Numbered from the whole stretch's first letter, positions 1 through 37,052 are shown. The stretch: 55,472 nt of DNA, filler included, from Jimgerdemannia flammicorona (GCA_003990765.1; 3 parts of 3 records of this genome joined end to end with filler, not necessarily neighbours in it), one strand, 5' to 3'. Numbers and translations are program-made. The notes: a model not told the origin generated them from the sequence alone.

Positions 1-124
1 TTCTCGTGCTCGTTGGTGATAACGAACTGGTGGAGATATCTGATATATCCTCCGATATATCCTCCGATATATCATCCGACGGTTCCGAGATTTCTCCTAA
101 ATGTACTTCTTGATCTTTAGACAT
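1..124 (-). CDS. hAT transposase N-terminus (partial)
   Basis: ATG at 124 gives MSKDQEVHLGEISEPSDDISEDISEDISDISTSSLSPTSTR. The homologous frame in copy 2 continues to SWVWNH (BED finger). Confidence 0.65.
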   Translation of the reverse strand, partial: MSKDQEVHLGEISEPSDDISEDISEDISDISTSSLSPTSTR

Positions 125-454
125 TTCGAATGTTTGATGATGGCAGAGACTGGGAGCTTGAGTGGGAGGCCGAGAGCTGGAAAGTGGCTAGGAAGTGGTG
201 AGCTAGGGAGTGGCAAACTGGGAAACAAGCTGGGGGGGCAGTGAACTAGGGGGCAGGGAGTTGTGGGGAGGCAGCGAGCAGCGAGCGGCAGGAAAAGCCA
301 GGAACTGTGGGGGGCAGCAAGAGGGAGAGCAGCGAGGTGGCGTGCGATAGCCAATAATCGATTGTGGACAGAGGATGGATGAATAAATACATATGGGTGG
401 TGAACTGGTACTCATCACGCAACTGCAAACAGCAAACAGCAAACATACTTTGGA

Positions 455-843
455 GATTCAGCGTATTCTGCATTGAGCAAGGTTTGTAACAACGTTTGAG
501 CAAGGTTTGTGGTGCGTTTGAGTGAGATTTGCAGCGAGGTTCGAGCAAGATTTGCAAGCGAGATTTGCAAGCGAGATTTGCACGTAAGATTAAAGCGAGA
601 TTTGCATAAGCCAGGCTTTGCAAGCCTTGTGCTTGCAAGCCTGGACAAGCTCAGTCACAAGCTGATATGACGTGTATATAAGCTGATATCACATGATATC
701 AGCTATCGGCTGAGCTTGTAAGTGTAAGGCTTGCAAATCTTGCTCGAACCTCGCTGCAAATCTCGCTCAAATGTACCACAAACCTCGCTCAAACGTCGTT
801 GCAAACCTTGCTCAATCGGGGCTTACGCAGAACCCGCTGAATC
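455..843. repeat. Palindrome 1 inside hAT element
   Basis: About 472-559 is the imperfect reverse complement of about 729-816. Centre AGCTGATATCACATGATATCAGCT near 681-704. Confidence 0.9.
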
Positions 844-850
844 ACGCAGA

Positions 851-1066
851 GAGGAGTGGAACACAGTGAGAAAAGCTCCAGATTGCAAGCGTAAGTGTAA
901 GCATAAGCATAAGCATAAGCTTTGCTCCGCTCAGTCTGACAAGCTGATAATAAGCTGATATCATGTGATATCAGCTATCAGCTGAGCAGAGCAAAGCTTG
1001 CGCTTGTGCTTACGCTTACACTTATGCTTGCAATCCAGAGCTTTCCTCACTGCATTCCACTCCTCT
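851..1066. repeat. Palindrome 2 inside hAT element
   Basis: GAGGAGTGGAA...GCTTTGCTC arm mirrored by GAGCAAAGC...TTCCACTCCTC. Centre AGCTGATATCATGTGATATCAGCT near 953-976. Confidence 0.9.
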
Positions 1067-1520
1067 TGCGTTCCACTCCTCTTGCGTTCCACTCCTCTTG
1101 CGTTCCACTCCTCTTGCGTTCCACTCCTCTTGCACAACCCTCACGTATTCCTCCACCTCTCTCACCCTCATTCCTCAGATTACAAACAACATGCAATTTA
1201 GAAATGGGTTTCAAAAGAGATTTCGAAGAGATTCCGAAAGAGATTTCGAAGAGATTCCGAAAGAGATTTCGAAGAGATTCGGAAAGAGCTTCTGAAAGAG
1301 ATTTCGGAGAGATTCCGAAAGAGCTTCTGAAAGATATTATAGCTTTTGAACATTTAAGATATCGAAAGCTTACTTTCGCCTCTTGTTCTTTTCGTCTCGT
1401 CCTTCGCTTCGCCTCATCCTTCGCTTCGCCTTGTCCTTCGCTTCGCCTCGTCCTTCGCTTCGCCTCATCCTTCGCTTCGCCTCGTCCTTCGCTTTGCCTC
1501 ATCCTTCGCTTTGCCTCACT
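1055..1520. repeat. Short tandem repeat tracts (TTCCACTCCTCTTGCG; GAGATTTCGAAGAGATTCCGAAA; CTTCGCTTCGCCTCGTC)
   Basis: Directly visible tandem units, with fewer units in copy 2 (about 20310-20640). Confidence 0.85.
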
Positions 1521-1532
1521 TAATTCACCACT

Positions 1533-2804
1533 ATGTTGAGAAAACGTGGATATGAGTGCCCGGCCAATAAGTATTTACTTGGCCCCCCCCAAGCTCAACG
1601 CACTTCAGCTCGCCGTCCCAAAGCTCGGCGCCCTAAAGATGCCCAGCTTGCCGACACCCAGCCTGCTGAGCTTACCGACACCCAGCCTGCCGAGCTTGCC
1701 GACACCCAGGTTGCCAAGCTCACCGACTCCCAGCTCGCTGACCCTCAGCTCCCCAATCTCCAGCTTGACCGCCAGCTCACCGCCAGTCCGCAAGCATAAG
1801 GTCCCCCACCAGATCTCAATAACGCAGCTCAAAAAAGTTAGTTTTTTTTTTTTTTTCTTTTTAAATCAATGTCTGAATTTTTTTTCTAATAACATTCGAA
1901 ATATACATATCCTCCAGCTTCTAAGCCTGGGCTGGAGCGCAAATCTTGCTACAATTGCCATTTTTGCCATCAAGTTTGCCCAAACACCACCTGGAAGCAT
2001 TGCCAAATCAATTTCCCGGATGCCCCAAATCTCACAGAGAAAAGGCCTTACAAATCGGACATTAGGCATGCTTTCGCTGCGGCCAACAAATGCATTAAGA
2101 AAGTACATAACGACCAACTGAGGCAAGAAGTCATAAGAGCGATAGAAAACCATACGAAAATCATGGAATGTTTGTCATACCACACCGGCTTCAAGGTGAA
2201 TGCCAAAGCGTGGAACAAGCAAGGTTGTCCAGATGGAATTGTCGTCATGGATGAACACGAAAAACTGCTGGCCATATTTGAACGAGTACCGGTGAAGAAC
2301 GACAAAATGCTTTATACGTGACTGATGGATAGCAGGCTTGTGCATTTTGTTGAGGGGGGTGGTAGTAGAGGAGATGGAGAGGTGGGAGAGGTCGGTGCCA
2401 GTGGAGGAGTCGGCGCTGGTGGAGAGGTCGGTGGAGAGGTTGGCGCGGGGGTGGTCGGCATGGGGGAGGTCGGCGCAGAGGAGGTCGGTGCGGAGGAACA
2501 TGGGGAGGTCGGCGTGGGGGAGGTCGGCGCAGAGGAACATGGGGAGGTTGGCACGGAGGAACACAGGGAGGTTGGTGTGGAGGAACATGGGGAGGTCAGC
2601 GCGGAGGAACATGGGGAGGTCGGCATGGAGGAATACGGGGAGGTCAGCGCGGAGGACGAAATGGAGGTTGGTGCAGAGGAGGTCGGCCCAGAGGAGGATA
2701 TGGAGGAGGAGGATATAGAGGAAAGCGGTTCGGAATATATGGAGGAAGATGGTTCGGAATATGAGAAGGAGGAGGATCAGTTGGTTTATAGTGATGAAGA
2801 GTAA
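1533..2804 (+). pseudogene. Spliced second gene of the hAT element: repeat-rich N-terminus, C-x2-C-x6-C motif, acidic Glu/Gly-rich tail (exons 1533-1836, 1918-2804)
   Basis: Intron GTTAGT(1837)...CTAAT...CCAG(1917) joins the 1533 and 2325 ORFs in one frame. Stop TAA at 1797 reads CAA in copy 2. Stop TGA at 2319 is consistent with decayed CGA. Confidence 0.65.
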
Positions 2805-2959
2805 GATCTGTTCACACCGGTAAGTTCTTTATTTTTCTGATTTACTTCCTATTTATTTCCGATTTCATTTTGATTTCTGATTCCTAATTATGTTTCTGTT
2901 TGTTTATTCTAAATATATCTTAGATGTGCAATATTTTTTTTTTGGTGCCTTGTAGCTTA

Positions 2960-3320
2960 AAGACGGATTAAAGACAGGTCTGTGTTGGGTTAAATATGGG
3001 TCAGGGTTGGGTCACATATATTTCTTGGGTCGGGTCACGTATATTTCTCGGATTGGGTTAAAGACGGGTTACGTATAATTCTGGGTCAGGTTAAAGACGG
3101 GTGACGTACGTTTCCAGGTCGGGTTAAAGATGGGTGACGTATAATTCCGGGTCGGGTTAAAGATGGGTGACATATTATTCCGGGTTGGGTTAAAGATGGG
3201 TGACGTATTATTCCGGGTCGGGTTAAAGATGAGTGACGTATAATTCCGGGTCGGGTTAAAGACGGGTGACGTATAATTCCGGGTCAGGTTAAATATGTAC
3301 ATGGGTCGGCTCGGGTTGCG
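2960..3320. repeat. hAT subterminal 33-bp tandem repeats
   Basis: Unit GGGTCGGGTTAAAGA(C/T)GGGTGACGTATAATTCC, also at about 22190-22570 and 38230-38560. Confidence 0.9.
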
Positions 3321-3519
3321 ATGCACTAGACCAGTAGTAGTCTCATTGGATATTCTTAATAGTCTTCTCAGTTTCAAGGTGACCAGCTAGTGGAGAGTCA
3401 AGATGTTCATGAAGAATCTTATACTGTAGTTCAGGATTGGCAGAAATATATACTTTGTCTTGATAGTATACAAGGTTGTCCTTAATGGTGTACTATTTCT
3501 TGAATTCCTTAGTATTCTT

Positions 3520-4130
3520 TTATAGAACCAGAGAGTCTTGTTTGTATACCTTCTTGATCTGATTGAGGAATTCAGGTACCATGATGACTTGTAAAATTGC
3601 AGTAAGGTCAGGTCTCCTTGAAAGTACATCTGGTATAATTAGAGTTTTACCAGGCTTATAGGTGATGTTTAGGGTAAAGGTCTGAAGTAGTTGACTCCAC
3701 TTGGCTTGTTGGCAAGAAAGGGTTGGTTGAGTATTGATGTACTGAAGGAACCTGTGATTAGTGATCACATTAAACTCAACTCCTTCTAGATAGTATTGCC
3801 AAGTCTTGAGGGCATGCATGATTGCCAGGAGTTCCTTTTCATGAGTAGCCAGCTTTTATTCTACTGGGGACAATTTTCTTGACTCAAAGGCAATAGGTCA
3901 GTATTCTTGACCATCATCTTGAGAAATGACTGTACCAATAGCAAAGATAGATGTATCTGTAGTGACCATGAACTTCAAGTTTGGGTCCATATTTCTAAGA
4001 ACAGGTGCATGGGTCAGGCAGTTCTTGAGATCTTGAAAAGCTTGTTGACAGAAAGCATCCCAGATGTAGGGGACATAGAGGTCAGAGTTGGGTTTCTTTT
4101 GCAGGAGGTTTGTCAAAGATTCTGCAATAT
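3520..4130 (-). pseudogene. Gypsy A RNase H
   Basis: ORFs 3898-4116 (VTTDTSIFAIGTV) and 3520-3819 (ITNHRFL...YKPGK...DVLSR). Confidence 0.88.
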
Positions 4131-4960
4131 TAGAGAAGTTCTTGACAAATCAACAGTAGTATCTAGCCAGACCAAGGAAGGACCTGAGTTCAGTGAGGTT
4201 TGCTGATACAGGCCACTGTTAAATGGCTTGTATTTTCCTTGGGTCTACTTGAATTCCTTTGGCTAATACATACAATGTATCTAAGGTATTCGACTTAATC
4301 CTTGAAAAATTCACATTTCTTGAGCTTTGCATAGAGCTTGTTCTTATGGAGGATCTTGAGGACTTATTCAGTACCACTGAAGATCAGGATGTCATCAATG
4401 TATACAAGTACAAAGATATAGAGCTGATCCTTGAAGATGGTTTGCATAAGATCTTGAAAGATTGCTGACATATTGGTGAGACCAAAGACCATAACTAGAA
4501 ATTCATAGAGTCTGAAAGGTGTCATAAAGGCAGTCTTGGGTATGTTTTCTGGCTTAATTTGAATTTGGTAATACCCAGAGGTGAGATCAATCTTGGTGAA
4601 GTACTTTGTATTTTTGAGAGCATCAAAGATTTGATCTATAAGCAGTAGTAGATAATAGTTCTTGACTGTGATCTTGTTGAGTGCTTGGTAGTCTATGCAC
4701 ATTCACAGAGTATCATCCTTTTTCTTGACAAATAGGACTGAGGAGCCAAAGGGTGACTTGCTTGGCTGAATAGCTCCTTGCTCAATGAGTTCATTGAGTT
4801 CCTTCTTAACTATTTCAATTTCAAGTAGGGATATATGGTATATTTTCTTCTTAGGTATAGCTGCATCAGGTACCAACTTGATTTCATAGTCATGGTCTCT
4901 TGAAGGTGATAGATCAGGTAGTTTGTCTAGAAAGATATCCTTGTATTTGTTTAGTAGTAA
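4130..4960 (-). pseudogene. Gypsy A reverse transcriptase
   Basis: CIDYQALNK, KIDLTSGYYQI, KTAF, FGLTN, YIDDILIFS in ORF 4364-4702 and flanks. Confidence 0.92.
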
Positions 4961-5179
4961 TTTGATGCTTTCACTAATTGATAGCTTCTTGTCTTCTTTC
5001 TTCAGTTGGATCAGTGTTACAAAGGTATAGGTAGCTTTCTTGAGGGCCTTCTTGAACTAAATTGCCAAAAGGGTAGCAATTGGAGTTCTTGTCTGAGTCT
5101 TGTCTGGCTTGATGATAATGTTGGTTCCATCCTGAATCAAGGTGACTTTATTCTTGGTCCAATCAATCTAAGGGTTGTG

Positions 5180-5467
5180 TCATATAAGCCAGGGTTTGCC
5201 TAGGATCAGGTCATGGTCTCTTAGTAGTACTATCTCAAAATCTAAATATTCCCAGTACTTCTGGATCTTGAGAGGGAGTTTAGCAGCAATTGAGTCAATT
5301 GGTAAAGTAGTGCCATCTGTAGTGACAACTCTATCATTCTTGCTAGCTGGTTTGGTGAGAATCTTGAGCTTATTAATGAGGTTCTTGTTGATGAAGTTTC
5401 CAACAGCTCCACTGTTTATGAGAACATCTAGCTCTTGTCCCTTGACTAGACCTTTGAAAATGAGCAT
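5180..5467 (-). pseudogene. Gypsy A aspartic protease
   Basis: VLINSGA (decayed DSGA) and DLILGKPWL. Confidence 0.85.
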
Positions 5468-5559
5468 TGAATTGACTCAGTTCTTGGCTATGCTTGCAAC
5501 TTTATCAGTGCTGCCAAAGCCTTTCTGATCTTACTTAGTTGAAGACAGCTTGGTGACTT

Positions 5560-5900
5560 CTTTGATGACTGGTAGGGTGGCTTGCTCCAGGATGAGCTGC
5601 ACAATTCTGTCACCTTTATTGACAGTATATGGTTGGTTCTTGTAGTTGACTAGCAGGACTTGCATTTTACCTCAGAAGTCAGAGTCAATGACTCCAGCAC
5701 TAATATCTAATAAGTGCTTGAAACTGAGGCCAGATCTTAGTACAATCCTTACATAATGTTCCCTGGGGATTTCAACTGAAAGGCCAGTTGGAATGAGCCT
5801 TCTTTCATGTACCAGAATAGTGACTTGTTGTACTGCTTGAAGGTCCAAACCAATGGCTCCTTCTGACTGTTCTGGGTCTTGGGAGTTGACTTGTATGAAA
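5560..5900 (-). pseudogene. dUTPase domain between Gag and protease
   Basis: GAIGLDL, IPTGL, RSGL, GVIDSDF, followed by GDRIVQLI. Confidence 0.88.
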
Positions 5901-5979
5901 TTGAGTACAACTTTTTGTTCAACTAGTTGAACTTGAGTATCTTTGGACAGGACCAGAATCCTCTTTGGTTTGGCAGTTT

Positions 5980-6933
5980 TCTTAGGACATTTGGTTGCAA
6001 TGTGACCAGGCTGATGGCAAAAGAAGCAGGCTCCAGCCTTCTTGAGATGCTCCTTTTCCTCAGGTGTAAGCTTATCTTTCTTGCTCTTATTGATGGTATC
6101 TAGGTCCATGAGAGCAGATCCAATAGTTCTGACTTTGGATTCCTCTCTTTTGTAGTTGTTGTTGAAGGGAGTCTCTTCTGTTCAAAGTAGTGACCATAGG
6201 TGATGATATCAAACCTATCAGCAATCTTCATTACTGTATCTAGGTTCTTGGATTCTTCTAGTTCAATATGAACTCGGGTTTGACCTTTCAGGCCTTGGAT
6301 GTACTTGTCAACCTTCTTGTCTTCAGTGACATGTGATAATTCTAACAGGATTGACAGGAATTATATATTGTATACTTGCACAGACTTGAGTTGTTTGACA
6401 TTTGCCAGATAGTCTCACACAGCCTTAGTGCTGTTGACTGGTTTGAATTGACCTTGAATGGCATCAGAGAATTCATTCCAGGTTCTGATCTGGTCAGCAA
6501 ATCTGGTATTCTGGACATAGTTTTACCACCAGATTGCAGCATTCCCTTGGAGGAGTGTGGCAGCGAATTGGACTAGTGTTGCTTCTTCCAAATTGGTCAG
6601 TTCTCCATATTGCTCCAATTGGAAAAGCCAGGCATCAGTAGACAGTCCTCCTCTTTGACTATCAAAAGTGTCAGGCTTCTGAGGCTTAATGGTAACTGCT
6701 GTTAGATATATTGATGTCAGTGGAGGTACAGAGGTATGAGCAGGGGCCTTGCTTTTCTTTCTTTCTATACATTTTTGAAGTTGAGCAATCTGAGCTAATG
6801 TAGTCTACAAAAGACTCTCAATGGCCCTGGTTGACTGAGTAGGGTTTTTCTGTTCCTCTTCTTCTTGCCAATTATAAGAGACATTGCCTGGGCCATAGGT
6901 ACTATATGAAGGGTTCTACTTATTGTCCTCCAT
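5980..6933 (-). pseudogene. Gypsy A gag with CCHC zinc knuckle
   Basis: KPDTF, YIQGLK, MDLD and CFFCHQPGHIATKC read on the minus strand with internal stops. Confidence 0.8.
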
Positions 6934-7001
6934 AGTATTGTGACTGATATCTTGAGAGGTGTCTTGATAAGACTAGGTGTAACTTAACCACTGCTACCAA
7001 G

Positions 7002-7395
7002 TGTAATGATTCTAGTTTCTAAATGAGGAAGCAACTAATTCTAGTAGTTCTAAGTAGCTTAAAGAGATACTTAAAGGTTCAAGTATTCTTGAAGGATTTC
7101 TGAGAGAAAATATTCTGAGCTTTATTTATAAGAACAAAGGGGATATTTATATAAGATCTGAAAGAAGAATCTGGAAGGATCTGAGAAATCAAAGGAAAAA
7201 AAAGTTCTTGACAAAGATGACAAATGATGACAAATAAAGTTCTACAAGTTTTCAAGACATTCAGTGACTAGCTAAATAAGTACTAGTGGATGCTTAGCAT
7301 TAAGAAAGAATTTCTAAGTGTTTGGAAAGTACTGGAAGGTTGTAGAATATTGAAGAAAGATAAAGAAAAGAAATAAACTATGCTAAAATATTACA
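7002..7395 (-). repeat. Gypsy A 5' LTR with adjacent PBS (about 6987-6999)
   Basis: TGTAAT...ATTACA termini. The minus strand continues TGGTAGCAGTGG, resembling an initiator tRNA-Met PBS. Confidence 0.8.
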
Positions 7396-7871
7396 AACTA
7401 AGATAGTAATAGTTGCTGCCATTATGGCTACCTGAGCTATAAGGTCTAGAATCTGTTAGTTTGCTATGTTGTTTATTAGAGGTGATTTAACTACTGATAG
7501 TAGTATTACTGATACTACTTAAGATACTGGTGTAGAGTGTAATAGTGTTCTTTAAGTCTATTGTCATGTAGTGGTCGCTGAGTCCTTCAAATATACCAGA
7601 TTCTCTTCAAGGTGTATCTCTTAGACTAACTCAAGTTGTTATAAGCAAGTTCTTATTGGAGTGCCTTCCCAAGGTCTTATAGTCCTCAAACTTCTTATCT
7701 TTTAACTGTCTTGTTATCTTTTAGATTGCTTGTAAGGAAGTGTGTATATTGCACTGAGAAGACTGACTTTATTTCAGAGGAAATAAGAGAGGTATTTATA
7801 CAAAATATAATTCAATGGCTGCTAAGATATAAAGCTAAATATAAATTCCAATAACTAAAACTACTAAGTTT

Positions 7872-8037
7872 CAGGGCTGGCATTATTTAGTGTCACATCA
7901 AAATACCAGTGCTGGAACAATTTCACGTCACCTCAGAATGCCAGTGCTGGCATTATCCAGTATTACATGAGAATACCAGTGCTGGTATTATCCAGTATTA
8001 CATGAGAATACCGGTGCTGGCATTATCTAGTGTAACA
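7872..8037. repeat. 35-bp tandem repeat in LTR-C between ORF and TATA box
   Basis: About 5 units of CCAGTGCTGGCATTATCCAGTATTACATGAGAATA. Confidence 0.85.
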
Positions 8038-8043
8038 AAGAAC

Positions 8044-8847
8044 TTAGAGCAGAAAGTTCAGGATTATGGGGGCTTCATCATCATCATTACTGAAGGAGAT
8101 AAGATCCATGAATTCATCATTTTCACATACTTCGATATCATATGGGATGATATCATCAATGACATCATCATGTTTGGCTATGGCAGGGAAATCGGGGACA
8201 AGGTCTGGAGCTCTCCAGTCTATGAGGTTCTCTTCCACAAAATAAGGAACAAATGTGGGGTCTTGGGGAGATCTAATCCAGATGCTTGGGCCTTGGAATA
8301 CTGAGATCAATCCTTGCAGGAATTGATCTGGGTTGTCCTGAAGGATAGGATGCCAGAAGTCTTCTACTTCTTCGCTGTTGAGGGTGATAGTGGACTGGAC
8401 TTCTGTAGCCACCCTGGCTTCTAGTGTATTGATACGGTGGGATGATAGGTCTCTGAAATCTGAGACTTTAACATACTCCAAGTTGGGGATTGACCATGGT
8501 GCATGCCTGAAGATCTGATGGATCTTCTTAGCTGTTCTTGTTTTGTGTATATCCATGGGAGTGACATCTTGTAGCTCTTGGGTGCTAGTCTGTAAGAACT
8601 CCTGGCAGAGGAGGTTTCCTATTTCGTACTCCTGCCACATTTGGAGGCATTTGGTAGCAATGGTGATCCTTGTTTCCATTTCATAGCAGTAGAGAATAAA
8701 GTGATAAGAGTCTGCAGTACCTAGGTTAATGCTAGGAGTCCTTCTTGAGCAGGTCCTCATGGCTCTTCTGATGTCTTGGAACATCCTTTCCTTAACCAAG
8801 ATACCTTGGTGATTCCTTGACCTTAAGTTTTGGCAGGCAGCAGGCAT
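8044..8847 (-). CDS. LTR-encoded protein of unknown function, 267 aa, open frame
   Basis: Uninterrupted, non-repetitive ORF that aligns by eye to the LTR-B ORF (22994-24091). Confidence 0.75.
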   Translation of the reverse strand: MPAACQNLRSRNHQGILVKERMFQDIRRAMRTCSRRTPSINLGTADSYHFILYCYEMETRITIATKCLQMWQEYEIGNLLCQEFLQTSTQELQDVTPMDIHKTRTAKKIHQIFRHAPWSIPNLEYVKVSDFRDLSSHRINTLEARVATEVQSTITLNSEEVEDFWHPILQDNPDQFLQGLISVFQGPSIWIRSPQDPTFVPYFVEENLIDWRAPDLVPDFPAIAKHDDVIDDIIPYDIEVCENDEFMDLISFSNDDDEAPIILNFLL

Positions 8848-9096
8848 TTTGTTTGTAGTAAGTCTTTGAGCTATTTTGGGATTAGTGGTTCTTGTTGGTT
8901 GCTGCTACTGCAGTTCCTTGATCCTTCTTTTATATTCTTCAGGATGCTCATGCTGTGGTCACAATGACTCACAGTTGGTCATCATTGCTTATCTCATATG
9001 CCATATGACCTTCTTGTGCTCTGATCTGGTGGCTTATAAGGAAAGACTGTCTCCTGTGCTGATGTCATCATTCTGGGGTCACTGTTACACTGTATA

Positions 9097-9958
9097 AGTT
9101 GCTGGAGTAATAGTTGTGAGTCTGGAGTAAGGGCTTGATAGATAGCTATCTATTGCTATATAGGTATATTTTGTCCTAATAGAGGTGTATCTTCTTCAGT
9201 AGTATCTCTGAGATTGAATTTACTGAGATACTCCTCCTCCTCTTGGCTTTGACTCCATGTAGTTGGGTTTTCTCAGCATCAAAGTAGATAGAATCAGTTA
9301 TATATCAGATTTTGGATGGGCTTAATTCAAAGTCTAGTCTGGTTCAGTATTAGTCTCAGTTTCCAGTAGAGTTATAGCTGGGCCTGCTTCTGGTTCAGAG
9401 TCAGATTATTCATAAAGAGTTTCTCTTACTTCTTCTTTAAGAATATAGCAGGCCTTATAATTCTGGAAGTGATAGTATAAGGCAGTCTTGGTCTTGGTAT
9501 GGTGAAAGTTAGTAGAGTTAAGCCACTTAGCTATAGAGGCTTGGGCTTTATAAGAAACTAAGGTCAAAAAGATAGCTGCTGGTTGTCCTAGGTTGCTCAG
9601 GTTTGTAAAGCTGACAAAACTCTTATTAAGAAGAGTAAAAATGGCTTCTATAAGACCTTCTTCATCTTGACTTGTGAGTGTAGAGCACGGAGTTTAATAA
9701 ATAGAGTTTCACTTATCTGCTGATTTAATTGGAGTACTTCTTTTTGTTAATAAAGTCTGTTCTACTTATTGTAGGTATAGAGGTCAAATTGTCCTTATAC
9801 ATCAGGTTCAATTCTCTTCAGATTGTCAGATGGTTCAGAATAAATTCCAGTTCAGAGATTGGGCTTTATACTAACTTATAGAAATTCTCATAGAGGTTTG
9901 TAGCAGGGTGAGGAAGTATCTTGAAGTAGAATTAGATTGTAAACTACTGCTATCAAGT
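9097..9958 (-). mobile_element. 5' internal region of LTR-B element with PBS
   Basis: TTGATAGCAGTAG PBS-like motif at about 9945-9956. About 9530-9958 is the reverse complement of 48915-49089 plus 54858-55160. Confidence 0.7.
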
Positions 9959-11984
9959 TATAAGAGAGTTACTTATTAAGATAACCATTACATAGTTCTG
10001 AGAGGGTTTTCTGAAAGTTCTGGATATTCTGAAAGACTATTTTCTTTAGGTCAAGATCAATTTTATATATAGTATGTCCTCTATGCTTATTGATTTTAAG
10101 ATCAGATTAATGTCTCAACCAAAGTCCTTTTTCAGACTAGTTCTGAATGTTCAGAATTTTCTATATTTCAGAAAGTTCAAGAAACTAAGACCAGCTTAGT
10201 TGATTTGGTGTATCACTGCAGACAATATCCAACTAGGAAATTTCATAATATGGTTAAGAGTGGGACCTAAAGAGTTCAGATTTACTTAAGAGTAGTTTGT
10301 GAGTTATTAAATAGGTTTATTCACTATTCATGATATTGCTATACTAGGAGTAGTTATATAAAGGAATATTGTAAGGAAGTGTTCAGGATTGTTTTTGTCT
10401 ATTTGAGTCTGAGATTCTAAAATCTGGGAGAAGGGATATTTATACTAGTGGAAGGCTATCTTAACTAGGCTGAATATGGATATAGCACTTAGTGCCTTGT
10501 TGAGTCAGAATGCAGTCACATAGTATAAGTGTGATCTGACATATCAAGAGATCATCTGACTACTGAGTTAGTTTACAGTTACATCATATGAAGCTAATCT
10601 AACTATACTAATGACTGCTAGGCTATCTATAGATTTAGATACTGTTTGAATAGTCTTTGATTATATTACTATTGATAATATCATCTCTGATAAAGTAGTC
10701 ATTTAGAAAGAGTGGTTCTTAGATTACTTCTCTCTATTTATTCAGATAATAATATATTAAGACCTCATCACCATTCCATAGGATAGCATCATCTGTTTCA
10801 TATACTGAATAAGATATTGATAAACAAAGGAGAGGTATATTATCTTTACTTTTATCAGATTTGCTATCTGTATACCTTTTATAGATTATAGTACTATATG
10901 TTACTGAGTTGTAGTAAGCTAGTGGCTGTTGTTCATATTACTTATACTTAGGTGATGGAGTTGTCAGTTCGATTTCAAGAGTTGTCTGGAGATACAGGTT
11001 GTATTCTCTAGTCTCTTCATTATAGTTGAAGTAATTGAGAGTAAATATAAGTTAGTACTCATACATACCAGTGATCATTGTTCCAATAGGTCTTATAGAT
11101 AGTTATAAACTGTTATAGGTTTATTGGTAAGGTTGGCAGGGTAATCAGGATTGATAGAAATCCTTGGCTCAAGGTCATGTCAGTATCAGAGGGATTATTA
11201 TCTTTTACTTCATCATCATCAAATCAGATTATAGCATAAACATCCTTCATAGCATATTCAACTTGGGATATTTGTAGAATGTGGTCATTGGGGTGTAAGA
11301 AGATTCTGTCTATAGTTTAAACATACTCAATATACTTGTGGTTGAGTTATTATACTATATTATCAATTTGGCCATAAGATAGAGTAGTAATCATTTTAGT
11401 AGTAATAACTTAAAGATAGAAAATAAAGGAGCTATACTTATAAAAGAGTTCTTGGTATTTATGGGTGATAAATTTCTGATATTGAGACATCTGGATAATG
11501 TTTATATCATAGTAGTGTTTGACTATATCTTCTAGGAGATAACTGATCTGATAGTAGCTTGAGATTTGTCTGATTTAGTGAATCTTACTAAGTATATTCA
11601 GAGTATTCCATTGGGTTTCCATAAAGTAGAGAGGTACCAGACTATGAATATTCATAAGAGATAGAGAGAGTATAGCTTGGTTGACAATGGCATTCCAAAT
11701 GTCAGTACAGATACAGTTGTAGATATATTGTTCAAGAGTTATGATTATTTGTTTTATTTGTTATAGTTCTCTATTTTGATATATCTGAGAATTGGGTATA
11801 TATACATTTGGTTCTAATTGATAAGATTTTATTTATATAAATCTTATATTCTATGACTTTAAGTTGACTTAGCTTTATATACTATGACTTTGGTTTAACT
11901 CAGCTTTATAATCTTATATATGATTTCCAGATTTATTCAGAGAGTGATATGTAATTTCAGTAGCTTGGAGGTTATACACTTATA
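9959..11984 (-). repeat. LTR-B, about 2.0 kb 5' LTR with decayed internal ORF (about 10620-11740)
   Basis: Reverse-complement copy of 22703-24789 over its whole length, adjacent to the PBS. Confidence 0.85.
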
Positions 11985-12169
11985 TTTTGATATAAAGAAG
12001 TCTATTATTTTGATCTACTTATCAGATTAAACCTAAAGAGAAGTTCACTATATTTTGATATAACTAAGCTAGTCAGCCAGACAAACCTTTATAGTGAACT
12101 TATTCATATAAATAAAGCAGATAACTGATATAACTTTATTTATAAAAAGAAGTCTGCTGATTTTGATAT

Positions 12170-13596
12170 TGTAATATATCCAGCTCAATGGAGACAAATT
12201 ACAAGGTTGGGGTTGATATAGTTTGGCTTGAGCCCCTAGTTACTTTGTTAAAAGCAACAAAATGTTCTTGATATTTAGTGGTATAATAGTTAAAGCTAGA
12301 TATCTGCAAGTGATTTATATGTCTATTTTCTAATTAGGACAGTTCTCTGGGTATAGTGGCAATTTGGATATAGTGCAGACATTTCTTATACATAATGGTC
12401 TGGCAATTTGACAGTTCTCTTTATATAATTTCTGTATAATAATCTCTGTGTAGTATAACAATCTTTAAAAGTATATGATTTCTGCATAATAATATCTTAT
12501 ATAGTGTGATGATCTCTGTATAGCATAGCAGATTTCTTATGCAGGATAATCTTGATGATATTCTTTATGTAGATTTGACAGATAACTTGATTTGGTGTAG
12601 ACTCTCTTAAATTGGATTCACTGGGAGTAGAGAATGGTACAGATCCTTCCTGAAACAGCTTTACTGGGAATTATACTAGCAGCAGATTCTTCCTAAATTA
12701 GGCTTACTAAGAATAAACTAATAACTCAGATGGTGTGAATAGCTCAGATAACTCAGATATCATGGATCTTCCTGAATTAGTAGAGTATATTACTTAGGTA
12801 GTATGAATTCTTAGCAAGTTGTATCAAAGACTGGCTTTATTTGCACAGAGTTACATTATTGGACTGGCTCTACTGTAAAGTTGTATTAAGAAACTGGCTT
12901 GTGGCAAGGTTCCTTAAAGCAGGCTCTCTGGAAATGCAAATAACTTAGAAATGGTAGCTTATTCCTTAAGTGGTAGATTACTCAAAAGGCAGCAAAGTTC
13001 TTTCTTGAACTTTGACAGTAAATCTTCAGACTTATCTGATAAGTGAACCAAAAATAGACTTGTTCTTTATATTGAAAAGTAGACCAGAGTGGGAAAAGGT
13101 AAAGCTCACAATCTCCTAGTAGTAGCTGTAGAGTTCCTCTTAAAGTATGATAGGCAGACTTGTCTTTTGCTTTGAATTCAGACTTTTCAGACTCTTCTTT
13201 ATATTGAAAAGTGAACCAGATTTGAAATATATTCTGAATTTTGGACTAAGGTTTATTTACTCTTGTCTCTGAGGTATTTTATACATTGTGGTTACTATCT
13301 AGTTACTATATTGCTAACTATAGATTGCTATATATGACAGATATACTAGTTTGACATAGGTGTGTAGGTCTAGCACAAGTGTACAGATCTAGTACAGATG
13401 TACAGATCTAGCACAGATGTGCAGGTCCTGCACAGATATACCTTATCTGATAGTCTGGCTATTTATACAGTTTTCCACAGCAATGATTGCTATGTCTGAT
13501 TACTATGCTATATGTTTATATTATATGGCTAAGTTACTAATTGTTCATGTCATCTGACTAAGTTATAATTCAGATAATATGTTTTGATTTGTCATA
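12170..13596 (-). repeat. Gypsy D 3' LTR (copy 1)
   Basis: Starts TGTAATATATCCAGCTCAA like 47242. Ends just before the TCAG...AAAG(A/G)ATGGTCTG internal sequence shared with 39683. Confidence 0.75.
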
Positions 13597-16500
13597 TCAG
13601 CCCACACTAAAGAATGGTCTGTCCTCAGACTGTCCTTTAGTCATCACCCCAGTGTGGGTAAGCATCTTCTATATCAATATCTATTCTATTATCTTTATCA
13701 TCTGTACCATAATTGCTCCATTCTAAGGGTTCTTCTTCTTCTTCTAGGAATAGGATGTTGACAGCATTGATGATGCTCAGGTAGATGGTCAGATTCATTC
13801 TTCATACATTACACCAGGGGAATTGTACTTATAACAAGGCTACAGAGTTACATTTATAAAGGATATAGAGCCTGTCTGCAGCAGTGACATCTCTTCTTGA
13901 TAGTTCTGTGGTATTTCTGATATATGTTTGTTCTGGGGCTGGAAGGTCTGCAATTGTTCTCCAATTATATAGTGGGCCTGAAGTTGATAGATCTGTAACA
14001 ATTGTCTAGCCAGAACAAAATTCTCTTGATGAATCTGAATTCTCTGGAGAGTGTTCCCATTGACTTCTCAGAATTGGGGTAGGAGAACTGGCAGTAATTA
14101 AAATGAGCTGAGGATAAGAGTCTGAAGGTAGTTGTCAACTCTCTGATTCATGATGTGGGAAAAGGTATATCTTGAGATGATTGATGTACACTAGTGTCCT
14201 CAGAGTTCATCCATCTATACCTCTTAAATAGATGCTGATTCCTCTGATGTTGTATACAAGATAAGATCCTTCCCATTTGAGCTCCAATTTGGTGACAAAG
14301 TTTATTTCAATTATGCTTCTCCAAACTAGTACTTGATCTCCAATCTTGATCTTCTAGTCCTTCTATTTCTGATCATAGTACTTCTTTTATCTTTCTTGGG
14401 CTTTGGTAATCTGAACTTAGGCCTGATTATGTAACTGTTCTGCCTTCTTGAGGAGGTCTCCAAGACTCTCATAGTTAGTAGTTCTGGTTTTTTTTGAGAA
14501 ATATCATTTCGAATGGCTTTTGTTTGGTAGAGGCAGTAGGGGTGTTCTGAATTTCCCATAAGATCTCAGGTAAGCAGAGATCCCAATTGGTAAGATTGAC
14601 TTGAGCAAGTTCTTTCTTAATGATCTGGTTCATTCTTTCTATCATACCATTAGTTTGATAGTGGTATGGTGTGGTCTATTTGAGGTAGATCTTGTGAATT
14701 CGAGCATAACTTATAATTATATTGTTGATGAATTCTATGTCTTGGTCAGAGATAAGTTCTTCTGGAGATCTATATCTGAGCATGAGTCTATGGAAAAAGT
14801 CTACAATAGTTAAGGTATCTGTGATTTCCATTAGAAAAGCCTCAGGCCACTTAGTCAGATATTCTATAAATACAAGAATATATTTATTTCTTTTTGGTGT
14901 AACTGGTAGGGGACTAATTATATCTACTCTCCATCTCTGAAAGATGTTGTCTGATAGTGTGATTGGTTATAGCAGTGCTTGGTAGTTCTTCCTTCCTTAG
15001 TACTTCTGGCAGGTGTCATATTTCTTAAGTATGTCTCAGACTTGTATTCTGAGATTAGGTCAATATTGGTGTGTTGTTCACAACTTTTTTTCTATATTTG
15101 CTTGTTCTTGGTGGGCTTTCTAGTATTCCTTTTGGATGAGATCTTCTTGTGCCTTAATGGTCTAAGAAGCTTCCTTTAGGGTATAGTTCCTCAGGACACC
15201 CTTTTTCTGATTCATTGGGGCTGGTGGGAAAGTACATCAACATTGTTGTAAGCTTTCTCTGCTTTGTGGATGATGGTGATTTTGTAATCCTAAAGGATAA
15301 GGATCCAGCAGACTAGGATTATGGTGGGTTCCTTATAGTTAAATAGCCATTTGAGGGCTGCATGGTCTGTAATCAGGATAAACCTTTTTTCAATGAGATA
15401 ATGCTTGAATAGGGTGACCACCCATATGACTACAAGGTATTCTAGTTTGGTGCTGCCATAGTTCATCTGCTGCTGATTGGTAGCTCAGCTTGTATAAGCT
15501 ATTACATAGTATTATTTGTCAGGTCTTTCTTGGGCTAGAACTGCTCCTAAGCCATCTTTAGAAGTATCTGTATATAAGATAAATAGCTTTTGTGGATTGG
15601 AGCACACAAGAATTGGTGCTATGGTCATATGGTTCTTGAGTTCTTTGAAGGCTTTCTCTTGTGATTTTGTCTATTTGTAAGATACTCCTTTCTTGAGAAG
15701 AACTTGGATTGGGGCAGCAATTTGGGCAAAGTCCTTAATAAACCTTCTGTAGTAGGATACTAGTGTCAGAAATGATAGTGTTTTCTTTGGAGTCTTGGGT
15801 ACTGGCCAATTGTTGATCTTCTCAGTTTTCTTTGGGTCTGTATAGATTCCTTCTTTTGAAACTATAAATTCAAGGAATTCAAGTTTCTGTTTCCTGAAGT
15901 AGCATTTCTTTACATTGAGTCTTAGATAGTTCTTGTGAGTGAGCTTGAAGAATTCTTCTAGATAGTACAGGTGTTCTTCAAAATTTGCTGAATAGATATT
16001 GAAATTGTCCATGTATACAATTAGATAGTAGTAGATCAAGGGGGTATAGACTGAATTCATCATTCTCTAAAAGGTGGGAAGTACATTACAAAGTTCAAAG
16101 GATATTTGGAGATATTCAAACAGTTTTCCTAGAGCAAGGAAGGCTGTCTTTTGAATATCTTTGGGATCTCATAAAATCCTGCAAAAAGGTCTATACTGCT
16201 GAAGTATCTGGCATCTTGTAACTGATCCAAAAGGTCATCGATTCTGGGCAAAGGATAGGCATCCTTTTCAGTGACTGAGTTAAGTTTTCTGTAATCTATA
16301 TAGAGTCTCCATTCTTCTTTCTTTGGTACAATAAGTATAGGGCTGACCTAGGGGCTGATAGAGGGTCAGATAACTCCATTGTCTAAGAGTTCTTAAATGT
16401 GCTCCTTTTCGAATATTTTTAAAGTAATGAGGTATTCTATAGGGTTTCTGCTGAATGGATATTGTATTTTCTATATTTATGCTGTAGTGATATTATGAAT

Positions 16501-18031
16501 TGTATGGCAGGTTGCCATAATCAGTAGTGAAGATATCTTGATATTTTTTGAGGAGTTCTACTAGTTATTGCCATTGTTGGGGTGTCAATTCTTCTCCAAT
16601 GTTGGTAGAAGGCTTCACTGTCTCCTGGGTCGCAGAGGGGCCTTTCCTTTCTTCTGAGATCTTTTGCTGTTTCCTGATAGATTTAGTTCATAAACTTCTC
16701 TATGAGTTTGGTTGAGAAAAGGCACCAGATGCCCTATGATGGTTCTTTTTAGCAAAATGATAGTTTCCCAACCTTGGTTAGTTGCTTGGGAGTGTACTGG
16801 ATTCATCTTGTTGGAGAATGTGTGTCCCTCTATATCCAGGTGTGGGATATCTTTATTGGGTTCAAAGAAAAGGTTTCTGGGATCAGGTGGTGCAAAGATT
16901 TCAAAGGTAGTTTGTTCTCCAGGCTTCAGAATGAGATTCTTATACAGTTTGACTAGTTGGTGGTATACTTGCTGGGAGATATTCCTCTTGAGGTGGTTGA
17001 CTTGAAGAAGATATACTTTCTTCTTATCTAAACTTCTAAATCCTTTGGCTTGTCTTATTTCTTCAGTCAGTTCAGAGACTTCTTATAATTGTGGAATCTT
17101 GACCTTCATGAAGACTGCTTGGGCAATCTTCTGTCCTCTAATAATTCAGTACTATTCTGTACTACTGTTGTGTAGAATGACCTTGATTTCACCTGTATAT
17201 CCTGGGTCAATGATTCCTCCTTCTACAGTTATTCCTTATTTAGCAAGTCCAGACCTTGAGGTCAGTTAGATATAAACTCCTTGGGGTGGCTGTATGGCTA
17301 GTCTGATTCTGATTATGAATGTTTTTCCAGACTTGATAGATTCATCCTCCAGACTGTAAAGATCATATCCCATATCTTCTGGGTGGGCTTTGGTCAGAAG
17401 TTTGGCCTTGGGATGTAGCAGAGCATACTGGGCAATATCCATGCTGAGTTTGGGCTGTCCTAGGGCTGAAGCTCCACTAGCAGAGAGTCTCCAGACTCTA
17501 AAATTGAGGTGTGGCCATCTGGCTCCAGTAGAGAGGTCTTGGAGATAGTTGATTCCTCTTCTACCTGTAGGGTCTAGGGCTTCCATGAAGTTGGTGGCAT
17601 TCTCTACCCATTCTTGGTGGATTGTATGTCTGATAAGAGCTAGGATGTTTTCTTCTAAATTATAGATCTTGAGTTTCCTTCTTCCTGGCTTCTTGATCTG
17701 GCTTTTTCAGATCTGGTCTCTGTTGTCTCCTCTTTCTGATGTCTGCAGTCTCAGCAGTCTGAGTGTCTTCTATGGTTGCAATATCCCATTGCTTAAAAAT
17801 GCTGTCCCTAGTTATTGATCTCTTGTTGTCTCAGGAATCAGTACACATCTTGGTCATAAGTTGGGGGAAGAGTAGATAAGGAATATACTTCTGTTTGGAT
17901 GAAAAAGCCTTATTCTCTAAATCAGCTTTGCAATCTGATAGTAACTTCTTGGAAGGTAGTTAACTGTATAACTGTAGTTAGGGGTTCTGGTCTCTGAGGT
18001 CTCTATCTCTCCTGTTGGTCTAGTAGATAGC
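12170..18031 (-). mobile_element. Ty3/Gypsy family D copy 1 (dUTPase-RT-RH-IN-3' LTR), degenerate
   Basis: RT YMDNF at 15671-16063, dUTPase GYDLYS/RSGL/GIIDPGYTG at about 17110-17410, integrase core at about 14250-15060. Collinear with 38570-44150. Confidence 0.92.
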
Positions 18032-18430
18032 TGTAAGAGGGTTACTTTTTAGGGTGACCATTATGTAGTTCTGGAAGGGTTTTCTGGAAGTTCTGGATGT
18101 TCTGGAAGACCGTTTTCTTATGGTCAAGATCAATTTCATATGGAGTACATCCTCTACACTTATTGATTTCAAGATCAGGTTGACATCTCAACCAAAGTCC
18201 TTTTCTGGACTAGTTCTGGATGTTCAGGATTTTTCCATATTTCAGGAAGTTCAAGAAACTAAGACCAGCTTAGTTGAATTGGCGTATCGCTGCAGACAAT
18301 ACTCAATTAGGAAATTTCATGATGGGGTTAGGAGTAGGACCTAACAGGGAGCAGATTTACTTAAGAGTGGTTTGTGGGTTATGGAATAGGTTTATTTGCT
18401 ATTCATGATATTGCTATGCTAGGAGTATTT
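18032..18430 (-). repeat. LTR-B end inserted in Gypsy D, cut by assembly gap
   Basis: TGTAAGAGGGGTTAC... matches 9959-10350. Confidence 0.88.
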
Positions 18431-18530
18431 NNNNNNNNNNNNNNNNNNNNNNNNNNNNNNNNNNNNNNNNNNNNTTAATTAATTAANNNNNNNNNNNNNN
18501 NNNNNNNNNNNNNNNNNNNNNNNNNNNNNN
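18431..18530. other. Artificial contig spacer
   Basis: N-run containing TTAATTAATTAA (stops in all six frames). Confidence 0.97.
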
Positions 18531-18839: not shown

Positions 18840-19330
18840 TCTATCCATACTCACAATATCATCTTTCTTAGATCAGTGAGGATTCTCAGCATGCTGGAGA
18901 GGTAAAAGCATGGCATTGTGATACTTCCAGAGATGTCATTTAAGATTGTTGATATTGCCATCCTTTGATATATAGCTCTAAGTTGTATAATGGTTGCAAC
19001 TGATGAGCTTACTTTGTAAATTCTATTTGAATAGAGAGATATGAGACTATATTAGAACCTCAACCACTTACAACTGACCACCCACCCTTATGACTGATGA
19101 GACCAATTACTCCTATGAATGCAACTATTAGCACAATGTATAAAACTACCTTTGTGGTATGATTCCACACCCAGCTATCACTAGGTTTTGTTTTTATTTT
19201 TATTCTCATGCTTGTTGGTGATAATGAACTGATGGAGATATCTGATATGTATATCCTCTGATATATCCTCCAATATATCATCTGATGGTTCTGAGATTTC
19301 TTTTAAATATACTTCTTGATCTTTAGACAT
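18840..19330 (-). pseudogene. hAT transposase N-terminus with BED zinc finger (intron 19023-19149)
   Basis: SWVWNHTTK | NLQSKLISCNHY...SKDGNINNLK*HLWKYH fits the BED pattern W...CxxC...G-T-N-L-x2-H-L-x3-H once decay is allowed for. Confidence 0.75.
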
Positions 19331-22702: not shown

Positions 22703-24789
22703 TGTAAGCACACAACCCCCAAGCCACCAAAATCACATGTCACCCTCTGAACAAGCCACTGAAATTACATGTGACCTTTAAACAAATCTGGAAATCACCT
22801 GCAAAGATCACGAAGCTGAGTCAAACCAAAGTCACAGCATACAAAGCTGAGTCAATATGAAGTCATGGAACACCAGACTCATACAAACAGGATCTTATCA
22901 ATCAGGACCAAATGCATATATACTGAGCACTAAGATATATTGAAACAGAGAACCAAAACAAACAATAACCACAACTTCTGAACATATACAAACATGACCA
23001 CTGAGATCTATAACTACATCCATGCTGACATTTGGAATGCTATTGTCAACTGAGCCACTCCCCCTCTGCCCCTCATAAATATCTATAGCTTAGCACCTCT
23101 CTACTTCGTGAAAGCCTGATGGAATGCCCTGAATATGCTTAGCGAGGTCCACTAAATCAAACAAATCTCAAGTTACTATCAGATCAGCTGCCTCCTAGAA
23201 GACATGGTCAAATACCACCATGATATGGATATTACCCAGATGTCTCAATACCAGAAACTCATTGTCTGCAAACATCGAGAACTCTTTTATGAGTACAGCA
23301 CTGTTATTCCCCATCTCTGAGTTACTACCAGCAAAATGATTGCTACCCTATCCTATGGCCAAATCAATGATATGATACAAGAACTCAACCACAAGTATCT
23401 CAAATATGTCCAGACTACAGACAGAACCTTCCTGCACCCTGATGACCACATCCTACAAATGCCTCAAGTTGGATATGCTATGAAGGACATCTATAATATA
23501 ATCTGGTTTGATGAAGATGAAGCAGAAGACAATAATCCCTCTGATACTGATATGACCTCTAGCTAAGGATCTCTGCCAACCCTGATTATACCACCAATCT
23601 TGCCAATGAACTTGCAATAGTTCATAACCACCTATGAAACCTACTGGGACAATGACCACTAGCATGAATACCAACTCGCATTCATCTCTGATTACTTCAA
23701 CTATAATGAAGAGACTGGAGAATACAATCTATACCTTCAGACAACCCTCGAGATTGAACCAACCACTCCACCACCTGAGTATGAGTGACATGAACTACAG
23801 CTGCCAGCTTACTACAACCCTGCAACTCATAGTGCTGTAACCTATAGAAGGTATGCAGACAGCGAATCTGATGAAAGCGAAGATGATGTACCTCTCCTTT
23901 GCCCACCAATACCTTATCCAGCATACAAGACAGATGATGCTATCCTGTGGAATGGTGATGAAGTTCCAATGTATTATTACCTCAGTGAATAAGGAGAAGT
24001 AATTCGCAAACCACTCTTCCTAGATAACTACTTCATCAGAGATGATGTCATCGATGGTGATATCATTGAAGACTACCCAGACAGCATCTAACTATAAATA
24101 GCTTAGCAGTCATAGTATAATTAAATTGGTCTTATATGATGTGACATAACTGTAAACTGACTCAGCAGTCAGACAATCTCTTAACATGTCAGATCACACT
24201 TGTACTACATGACTGTAATCTGACTCAGCAAGGCACTAAGTGCTACATCTATATCTAGTATAGTCCAGATAGCCCCTCACTAGTATAAATACTCCCTCTC
24301 TCAGATCTCAGAATCTCAGACTTGAAGACTTGAATAGACTCAAACACACAAGAACACTCCTGAATACTTCCTTACAATATTCCTTTACACAACTACTTCT
24401 AGTATAGTAATATCATGAATAGCAAATAAATCTATTTAATAACCCACAAACCACTCTTAAGTAAAACTGCTCCCTGTTAGGTCTCACTCCTAACCCTGTC
24501 ACGAAATTTCCTAATTGGGTATTATCTGCAGTAATATGTCAATTCAACTAAGCTAGTCTTAGTTTCTTAAACTTCCTGAAATATAGAAAATCCTGAACAT
24601 CCAGAACTAGTCTGAAAAAGGACTTTAGTTGAGACATCAACCTGATCTTAAAATCAATAAGCATAGAGAATGTACTCTATATGAAATTGATCTTGACCTT
24701 AAGAAAACAGTCTTCCAGAATATCCAGAACTTTCAGAAAACCCTTCCAGAACTACATAATAATTATCCTAAAAAGTAAACCCTCTTACA
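22703..24789 (+). repeat. LTR-B, 2087-bp 3' LTR preceded by polypurine tract
   Basis: AAAAAGGGGAGAGT then TGTAAG...CTTACA. TATA box TAGTATAAATAC at about 24281. Confidence 0.9.
22994..24091 (+). pseudogene. LTR-B-encoded ORF, about 365 codons, unknown function
   Basis: One frame from ATG 22994 to TAA 24091 with no frameshift. Three internal stops checked read CAA in the 9959-11984 copy. Confidence 0.78.
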
Positions 24790-33802: not shown

Positions 33803-33899
33803 ATAGTTAATATATAATGGTTCATTATATATTAACAAGCTACTGAAAATTACAATAAAATTTTTAATAATATAATTTTTAATATAATAGTCATAAATA

Positions 33900-36952: not shown

Positions 36953-37052
36953 NNNNNNNNNNNNNNNNNNNNNNNNNNNNNNNNNNNNNNNNNNNNTTAA
37001 TTAATTAANNNNNNNNNNNNNNNNNNNNNNNNNNNNNNNNNNNNNNNNNNNN
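36953..37052. other. Artificial contig spacer
   Basis: N-run with TTAATTAATTAA. Confidence 0.97.

Follow-up and report, generated by a model that had tools for sequence, protein, structure and literature searches.

An intact, apparently selected gene inside a probable solo long terminal repeat of a probably fungal retrotransposon family

The window analysed here is a stretch of 55,472 nucleotides from Jimgerdemannia flammicorona (GCA_003990765.1), a nest of decayed retroelements in which one long terminal repeat (LTR) encloses an intact open reading frame (ORF) of 267 amino acids. It is highly probable that this ORF is a selected gene carried by a solo LTR. The overall explanation that fits the observations best, and of which we are moderately confident, is that the gene-bearing solo LTR lies in the leader of an older Ty3/gypsy element, and that sequence motifs within the LTR may mark a transcription unit of its own; a regulatory role of the product is a more tentative proposal.

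The ORF runs on the minus strand from an ATG at 8847 to a stop codon at 8044, as a sequence-only reading of the window had proposed, within a frame that is open from stop to stop over 8044–8904 (286 aa). In total, ten relatives of its protein were recovered at 29–88% identity, with significant similarity over the full length. A word-indexed search returned six relatives among 145 candidates (59–85% identity, E 1.8e-132 to 2.4e-33), while an exhaustive phmmer pass over 1.84 billion representatives returned five (E 5.6e-133 to 4.3e-9) and added three distant members with identities of 44, 37 and 34%. The 11-row family alignment retains an MPA start, a strongly conserved block at residues 140–212 and a C-terminal ...LNFLL. 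All members come from JGI or ENA contigs of 540–4848 bp, short and repeat-like; the protein collection searched contains no NCBI or UniRef record of the family, nor the exact protein of the window. Pfam gives no match to the ORF at the gathering cut-off, the best being EF-hand_EFHB_C (E 0.21, 11.9 bits against a cut-off of 27), and a Pfam scan of 128 stop-to-stop frames likewise yielded none for the ORF at E 0.001.

A metagenome scan with the family alignment produced 33 pattern matches, one of which is a true relative. This sequence, L001 (1345 bp), has an intact ORF of 323 amino acids and is the only relative whose DNA was retrieved. Across 266 codons aligned between the two ORFs, the proportion of synonymous differences (pS) is 0.73, which is saturated, the nonsynonymous proportion (pN) is 0.27, and the ratio of nonsynonymous to synonymous substitution rates (dN/dS) is 0.126. 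Similarity detected by blastn is confined to the coding part (L001 51–715, 70%), outside which only short islands are kept: GAATATAAAAG before the ATG, and TGTATAAATACC with GAA(A)TAAA..TCAGTC after the stop. Because frame, start and C-terminal motif are preserved even in relatives with as little as 29% identity, and because dN/dS against L001 is so low, the ORF is, judged from its sequence, a genuine protein-coding gene under purifying selection. The earlier suggestion of an old, selected LTR-gene family is borne out by these ten relatives and by this ratio, independently of the second LTR family, LTR-B, that had inspired it. The ORF also contains 21 codons that are one transition away from a stop, none of which has been hit.

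The boundaries of the LTR were drawn from contigs placed on positions 3300–10000; these come from four publicly available runs, X1 from a soil metagenome, X3 from organism A, and X8 and X12 from organism B. Loose contig ends occur at 9089 (three contigs of X3, one of X12), at 7561 (nine of X1, one of X3) and at 7559 (two of X12), and the interval 7562–9089 has a terminal TG...CA with short inverted ends. The three X3 contigs continue past 9089, where on the minus strand TTCAGGAGGAAGA leads directly into TGTAACAG, such that a polypurine tract adjoins the start of the LTR; near the edge this AGGAGGAAGA tract reads CAGGAGGAAGA before TGTAAC. At the other end, nine X1 contigs and one X3 contig extend beyond 7561, where the minus strand passes from CATGACA through ACT into TGGTGCCCATTGG, a TGG-initiated site resembling a primer-binding site, three bases past the LTR end. 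Unrelated flanks in other contigs at 9082, 9089 and 7559 are to be expected of many insertion sites, and summed contig depth is several-fold higher over 7556–9123 than on either side in X1, X3 and X12, although summed depth in these runs and in X8 does not equal copy number and serves as a weak hint only. The retrotransposon that carries this LTR, which we call the 'C' family, is probably fungal and a high-copy family. An LTR had previously been placed at 7538–9089; the polypurine-tract and primer-site junctions uphold both the LTR and its 9089 end, but the far boundary lies at 7561/7562 and not at 7538.

In the window copy itself there is neither a polypurine tract nor a primer site (for the latter, 0 matches at up to 2 mismatches), and no second copy of 7562–9089 exists in the window even at relaxed settings. 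One X1 contig (depth 3.06) links 7557 to 9090 and skips 1532 bases, equal to 1528 + 4. The missing tract and primer site, together with this contig representing an empty site, point to a solo LTR with a 4-bp target duplication; base 7561 could be the last base of the LTR, and the boundary is therefore uncertain by 1 nt. The possibility that 7538–9089 is the 5' LTR of the adjacent gag-pol was rejected in view of the lack of a canonical primer site, of flanks unlike those of other copies and of the empty-site contig.

Within the LTR, the ATG at 8847 lies 242 bp inside the 9089 terminus, and no other ATG intervenes between an upstream TATA box (8934–8927) and that position. L001, which is saturated at synonymous sites in comparison with the window, has exactly the same upstream motif, GAATATAAAAG. 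After the stop codon there is a 35-bp tandem repeat, which is absent from L001 (1345 bp) and varies in copy number between copies of the LTR; skips of 80–171 bases within 7854–8042 in X8 and X12 contigs fit such differences in repeat number. Skips of 65–183 bases inside the ORF in X8 were considered as introns, rejected and taken as badly fitting relatives. A downstream TATA box is situated 240 bp before the 3' end of the LTR, with an AATAAA within the following 30 nt. A similar motif, AGTATAAATAC, is found in both LTR-B copies of the window about 500 bp before their 3' ends, and in these copies the ORF starts approximately 240–290 bp from the 5' end. Hence, the layout first proposed, of an ORF beginning 240–290 bp inside the terminus with a TATA box downstream, was recovered here, with TATAAATA at 7800–7793.

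From these motifs we infer that the second TATA box would be the promoter of the genomic RNA and the first that of a separate mRNA ending at the same AATAAA; it is this reading of the downstream TATA box that places the ORF in the U3 region. The LTR would then constitute a self-contained transcription unit. The conserved TATA box 87 nt upstream of the ATG would start an mRNA of about 1.1 kb, which would pass through the ORF and terminate at the AATAAA of the LTR, a shared signal just past the second TATA box, from which the genomic RNA would be driven. Every copy of the LTR, solo copies included, could for that reason make the protein.

The protein is strongly polarised in charge, its first 60 residues having a pI of 9.7 and its last 52 a pI of 4.05, with 15 Asp/Glu residues among bulky hydrophobics, and it has no predicted membrane segment. 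Given this charge pattern, the putative promoter of its own and the repeats in front of the element's promoter, we tentatively regard it as possible that the protein acts in trans in the nucleus to regulate the element, perhaps as an activator working on the repeats upstream of the second TATA box. Alternatively, it might counteract silencing by the host or assist the element in its nuclear steps.

The most likely insertion site of the solo LTR is the leader of an older, LTR-B-type Ty3/gypsy element, since LTR-B copy B-a and a further fragment, B-d, have in common a continuation of 176 bp past the LTR end, and since 9090–9960 runs into B-a. Pfam matches in the host element comprise Ty3_capsid (1.2e-4, below the Pfam cut-off), dUTPase (1.4e-12), RVP_2 (2e-8), RVT_1 (6.4e-17), RT_RNaseH_2 (3.6e-14) and RT_RNaseH (6.1e-15). 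Two more Ty3/gypsy copies are found on the minus strand at 12000–18430 (element 1) and 38571–48471 (element 2), 78% identical over 4.7 kb; as in the host element, their dUTPase lies between capsid and protease. The LTRs of element 2 are 1.1 kb long (38571–39682 and 47339–48471, 79% identical); element 1 is without its 5' part and adjoins an end fragment of LTR-B (18027–18430) into which an assembly gap cuts. A fourth end fragment of LTR-B occupies 48471–49089.

The GC content is 0.41 in the 'C' LTR and 0.44 in the ORF, against 0.33–0.36 in the surrounding leader and 0.30 in B-a. Since the LTR sits within an older element and exceeds its hosts in GC content, we favour a young copy, and the open frame is most likely due to this young, nested insertion; of the two origins that had been offered, young or domesticated, only the former gains support. 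The ratio of observed to expected CpG is 0.0–0.16 in all repeats (0.12 in the ORF copy), compared to 0.85 in a gene at 29831–30997, and TpA/ApT is only 0.77–1.37, such that the decay is one of CpG loss and classical repeat-induced point mutation was rejected as its cause. Differences from other copies are mostly A in the window against G elsewhere, and T in the window against C elsewhere (in X1, 202 and 125 places respectively, against 49 and 63 of the reverse over 3300–10000), from which it follows that the window copies carry an excess of C-to-T and G-to-A change.

It had further been claimed that the ORF is a distant homolog of the LTR-B protein. The LTR-B motif strings on which this claim was founded all lie, in collinear order, in one frame at 23027–24067 on the plus strand in LTR-B copy B-b, and several recur in the inverted copy at about 11290–11703. 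An intact LTR-B relative, P0011, is 64% identical over 68% of the B-b frame; it was the only one among 375 and then 2969 candidates and is without the N-terminal third. When the N-terminal 160 residues of B-b are scored with the profile of the ORF family they obtain 5.6 bits, a value reached by 3 of 500 shuffles, and among 5486 overlapping 160-residue windows from all six frames the six best non-self windows all fall in the B-b ORF frame, at 22922–23701. This frame also ranks first with a hidden Markov model (HMM) built without the ORF of the window (5.3 bits) and with an HMM of the four most distant members (6.3 bits). The match extends over profile positions 20–124 and is interrupted by one gap of 3 residues. 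The next-best windows (3.6–1.8 bits), at 23672–24451 on the minus strand and antisense to the C-terminal part of B-b, are taken as noise or composition.

As the LTR-B copies have decayed by C-to-T and G-to-A change, undoing this decay should raise the score if the match is real. B-b and B-a differ by a transition at 108 places. Setting all of these to C or G gives a mosaic with scores of 11.5, 11.9 and 11.8 bits under the three profiles, and the opposite T/A mosaic scores about 0; random mosaics reach the C/G score in 0, 1 and 4 of 500 trials. None of 1000 shuffles of the C/G mosaic attains its score, and the reversed sequence obtains 1.1 bits. Controls were flat for the other five frames, for the C-terminal part of LTR-B and for 45 pieces of elements 1 and 2 (maximum 1.6 bits, mean change -0.73). 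In pairwise comparison, the pre-selected N-terminal stretch reaches z 2.2–2.8 (41 and 20 of 1000 shuffles at gap penalties of 11/1), a signal that fades with softer gaps. Taken over these profile comparisons, the N-terminal 110 or so residues of the ORF family are likely to be homologous to the start of the LTR-B ORF, and past this shared domain the two proteins differ. Thus, the claim of homology stands for the N-terminal part, through profile methods only, and finds no backing from full-length pairwise alignment or hhalign. The proposed C-terminal blocks (FWHP with FLHP, and DDVIDDII) are without statistical support: P0011 scores -0.5 bits, and the C-terminal part of LTR-B -0.8 to -0.5. If the homology holds, an LTR-borne gene would be common to two LTR families that have no DNA similarity remaining between them.

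A number of results weigh against the explanation as a whole. The structure model of the protein is poor, with a mean predicted local distance difference test (pLDDT) score of 50.4 and helices at 47–149 with pLDDT 60–85. Searched with this model, Foldseek finds nothing in the PDB at E <= 0.001 (best E 0.77), and the best score of a VIA-wide fold search, Z 4.8, is below the stated noise level for helical models; winged-helix and DNA-binding fold entries at Z of about 3 were set aside as not being evidence. The best ESM Atlas score, 0.83, falls within the range of shuffled sequences. What speaks for a regulatory function is composition and nothing else, and what speaks for the U3 assignment is the TATA and AATAAA motifs by themselves. 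The empty-site joint is seen in one contig, the shorter side of which covers only 27 letters; the primer-site and polypurine-tract junctions come from related copies in other samples and not from this genome, and no full element with two such LTRs was seen among the short contigs of the four runs.

The remaining adverse results concern the link to LTR-B, and they are what favours the rival view that its likeness to the ORF is chance or convergence, unrelated LTR families having each gained an acidic-tailed ORF at the same place. Full-length pairwise alignment of the ORF with B-b, local or semi-global, is no better than alignment with shuffled sequence (z -0.41 to 1.04, hence below 1.1, in 16 settings, with 46–199 of 300 shuffles reaching the score, and 111 of 500 in a separate run). 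When the family HMM is applied to 600-residue six-frame chunks, the LTR-B frame is not outstanding (-1.6 bits). With hhalign, the family against P0011 has a probability of 0.39%, and against a three-row LTR-B alignment one of 0.26% (P 0.23), both below 0.4%, although the best alignment in the latter case is the second block of the sequence-only reading. Neither B-a (-0.6 bits, reached by 94 of 500 shuffles) nor P0011 (-0.5 bits, 113 of 500) is significant; the raw profile score of B-b is only 5–6 bits, which in a blind search of the window would correspond to an E of about 0.4–3; the mosaic is reconstructed on the assumption that decay was directional; and the best-conserved block of the family, at residues 140–212, has no detectable counterpart in LTR-B. 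We nonetheless consider chance or convergence unlikely, because three profiles, including one from which the ORF of the window was left out, all place the B-b frame at the top of 5486 windows, because reversing the decay doubles the score (to a value reached by 0 of 1000 shuffles) whereas further decay abolishes it, because this effect is specific to the frame and region, and because the alignment is one stretch of about 100 residues with a single gap.

The other rivals concern the place and nature of the gene. If the upstream TATA box (8934–8927) were the main promoter of the element, the ORF would be the first cistron in a long R/U5 leader, similar to ORF0/ORF1 of the plant Tat/Ogre elements; the upstream box is indeed conserved, no ATG follows it before 8847, and extra upstream ORFs are known in plant elements (PMC3485330, in the excerpt used). 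This arrangement is nevertheless quite unlikely, since a second box, TATAAATA, is conserved in L001 and has a like motif in both LTR-B copies, since these motifs lie 240 bp ('C') and about 500 bp (LTR-B) from the 3' end, and since the AATAAA within 30 nt of it suits a short R. Domestication, by which the solo LTR would have been kept because the host uses the protein, would account for an intact ORF in an immobile solo LTR among stop-filled elements, for the absence of hits in the 21 codons one transition from a stop, and for promoter-like and poly(A)-like signals of its own. It becomes very unlikely when set against a multi-copy repeat with many variant flanks in the four runs, the nesting of this copy inside another transposon, a CpG ratio (0.12) within the range of the repeats and unlike that of the nearby ordinary gene, and relatives that sit on short, repeat-like contigs with none in NCBI or UniRef; moreover, youth explains the open frame. 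The view that the frame is open by accident, in LTR DNA that codes for nothing, would agree with the lack of Pfam, fold and Atlas matches and with the poor structure model, but is scarcely credible beside a dN/dS of 0.126 at saturation of the synonymous sites, ten relatives (identity as low as 29%) in which frame, start and C-terminal motif are preserved, and a similarity to L001 that is limited to the coding part.

Table 1. Features of the window bearing on the gene-carrying LTR and its surroundings
Feature	Position	Strand	Remarks
Solo LTR, 'C' family, 1528 bp	7562..9089	-	Reads TGTAACAG...CATGACA on minus strand; loose contig ends
Intact ORF, 267 aa + stop	8044..8847	-	ATG 8847, stop 8044; basic N-terminus, helical core, acidic tail ending ...LNFLL
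Upstream TATA box, TATAAAAG	8927..8934	-	87 nt before ATG; candidate promoter of ORF mRNA
35-bp tandem repeat, 2.8 copies	7935..8031	.	Between stop codon and downstream TATA box; candidate enhancer
Downstream TATA box, TATAAATA within TGTATAAATACC	7793..7800	-	Conserved in L001; probable genomic-RNA promoter, marks U3 end
AATAAA, candidate poly(A) signal	7768..7773	-	GAATAAA at matching place in L001
Target-site duplication, right copy, CTGT (+ strand)	9090..9093	.	Joint of X1 contig 7557–9090
Target-site duplication, left copy, CTAT (+ strand)	7558..7561	.	One G-to-A difference from right copy; 3/4 bases alike
Host Ty3/gypsy element	3330..7557, leader continues 9094–9960	-	Capsid, dUTPase, protease, reverse transcriptase, RNase H; stops throughout, cut off near 3330
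LTR-B copy B-a	9961..11967	-	Probable 5' LTR of host element; more decayed, GC 0.30; frame ~10641–11760
LTR-B copy B-b	22752..24789	+	Frame 22991–24091 broken by 9 stops
B-b stretch matching N-terminal domain of ORF family	23030..23386	+	Profile 5/20–125, one 3-residue gap, register of the sequence-only reading (first two block sets)

Elsewhere in the window, the bin at 6884–7107 in the leader of the host element has a summed depth of 4290–6539 in X8 and X12, far above that of the LTR and the rest of the element; 6922–7094 contains many loose ends, and the region 6660–7107 is possibly another short piece, either high-copy or highly expressed, with no Rfam match. Scans of the window with Rfam and for tRNA genes gave 0 matches each. 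Two pairs of 44-base N runs (18431–18530 and 36953–37052, 176 N in total) are read as assembly gaps inside the repeat nest. A direct repeat of about 3.3 kb (1–3328 and 19203–22576, 80–82% identical) has long open frames on both strands, rich in Pro/Ser/Thr or in Gly/Glu/Arg, one with a weak Pentapeptide match (5.4e-5), and is closed by arrays of a 33-bp tandem unit (2939–3370 and 22220–22585) that recurs at 38202–38600. The sole ordinary-looking gene of the window, at 29831–30997 on the minus strand, is a Cys-rich frame of 389 aa without a Pfam match; its GC content is 0.52 and its CpG ratio 0.85, and blocks with a GC content of about 0.2 flank it (26000–29000 and 32000–35000).

Genes within or close to an LTR are known from animal retroviruses. 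Mouse mammary tumour virus has the sag (superantigen) ORF in the U3 of its LTR, and Sag is a membrane glycoprotein. The ORF described here is similarly in sense inside the presumed U3, so that a complete element would have it at either end and the genomic RNA would contain it at the 3' end; unlike Sag, to which it has no relation in sequence or predicted fold, its product is an acidic, mostly helical protein with seemingly its own promoter inside the LTR. In foamy viruses, the accessory genes tas and bet lie near or overlap the 3' LTR and are served by a separate internal promoter, and Tas, which binds DNA, activates through an acidic region and thereby acts back on the LTR. By gene position and charge pattern Tas is our working model for the ORF protein, although, unlike Tas/Bet, the whole ORF is inside the LTR. 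Neither a Sag-like nor a Tas-like identity is supported by Pfam, Foldseek (best E 0.77) or VIA (best Z 4.8), given a model of mean pLDDT 50.

Among retrotransposons, of which the following accounts are cited from excerpts, rice Retrosat2, RIRE3 and RIRE8 have an extra ORF, ORF0, situated before gag in Retrosat2 (PMC3485330), plant LTR retrotransposons have additional ORFs (aORFs) in the internal region (PMC7264820), and bdelloid LTR elements also carry additional ORFs (PMC5408684). Neither 'within the LTR' nor 'in the LTR' appears as a phrase in the plant review (PMC7264820). The ORF of the 'C' LTR resembles these extra ORFs, as excerpted, in being lineage-restricted, without an assigned function, in sense, faster-evolving than pol and common to related long-LTR families, but they are internal, before gag or after pol, whereas it resides inside the LTR and is thus retained when only a solo LTR is left. 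Ty3/gypsy elements of fungi that bear a dUTPase are described from Postia placenta, Phanerochaete chrysosporium and Tuber melanosporum (PMC2864245, in part), and the host element with its LTR-B copies and elements 1 and 2 are alike in this respect, a likeness that concerns the host and not the ORF. The dUTPase passages of that paper place no ORF in an LTR; one figure legend names an 'add. ORF'. Papers on Podospora crapaud and on Entomophthora do not touch upon ORFs carried by LTRs. We found no report of an ORF inside a retrotransposon LTR in the open-access literature, searched with few phrasings and without supplements.

LTRs are usually seen as non-coding promoter and terminator modules and are masked in annotation, such that a selected gene within an LTR would be systematically missed. 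Such a gene would be copied twice with each insertion and would survive the LTR–LTR recombination that removes gag-pol, and therefore the cost and activity of solo LTRs would have to be thought of differently. In it, fungi would have an equivalent of the accessory genes found in complex retroviruses. Provided that the link to LTR-B is true, the gene predates the LTR sequences in which it now resides, which argues for a function in the life cycle of the element. It is a bolder and, on present evidence, doubtful proposition that some fungal Ty3/gypsy lineages may be 'complex' retrotransposons, whose LTRs would be autonomous genes, complete with promoter, ORF and poly(A) signal, for an ancient trans-acting regulator with an N-terminal domain older than the split of LTR families whose DNA is no longer similar. 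Were it true, each solo LTR would be a potential source of the factor, since the gene sits in the LTR, and thousands of dead insertions could feed or titrate the activity of living elements.

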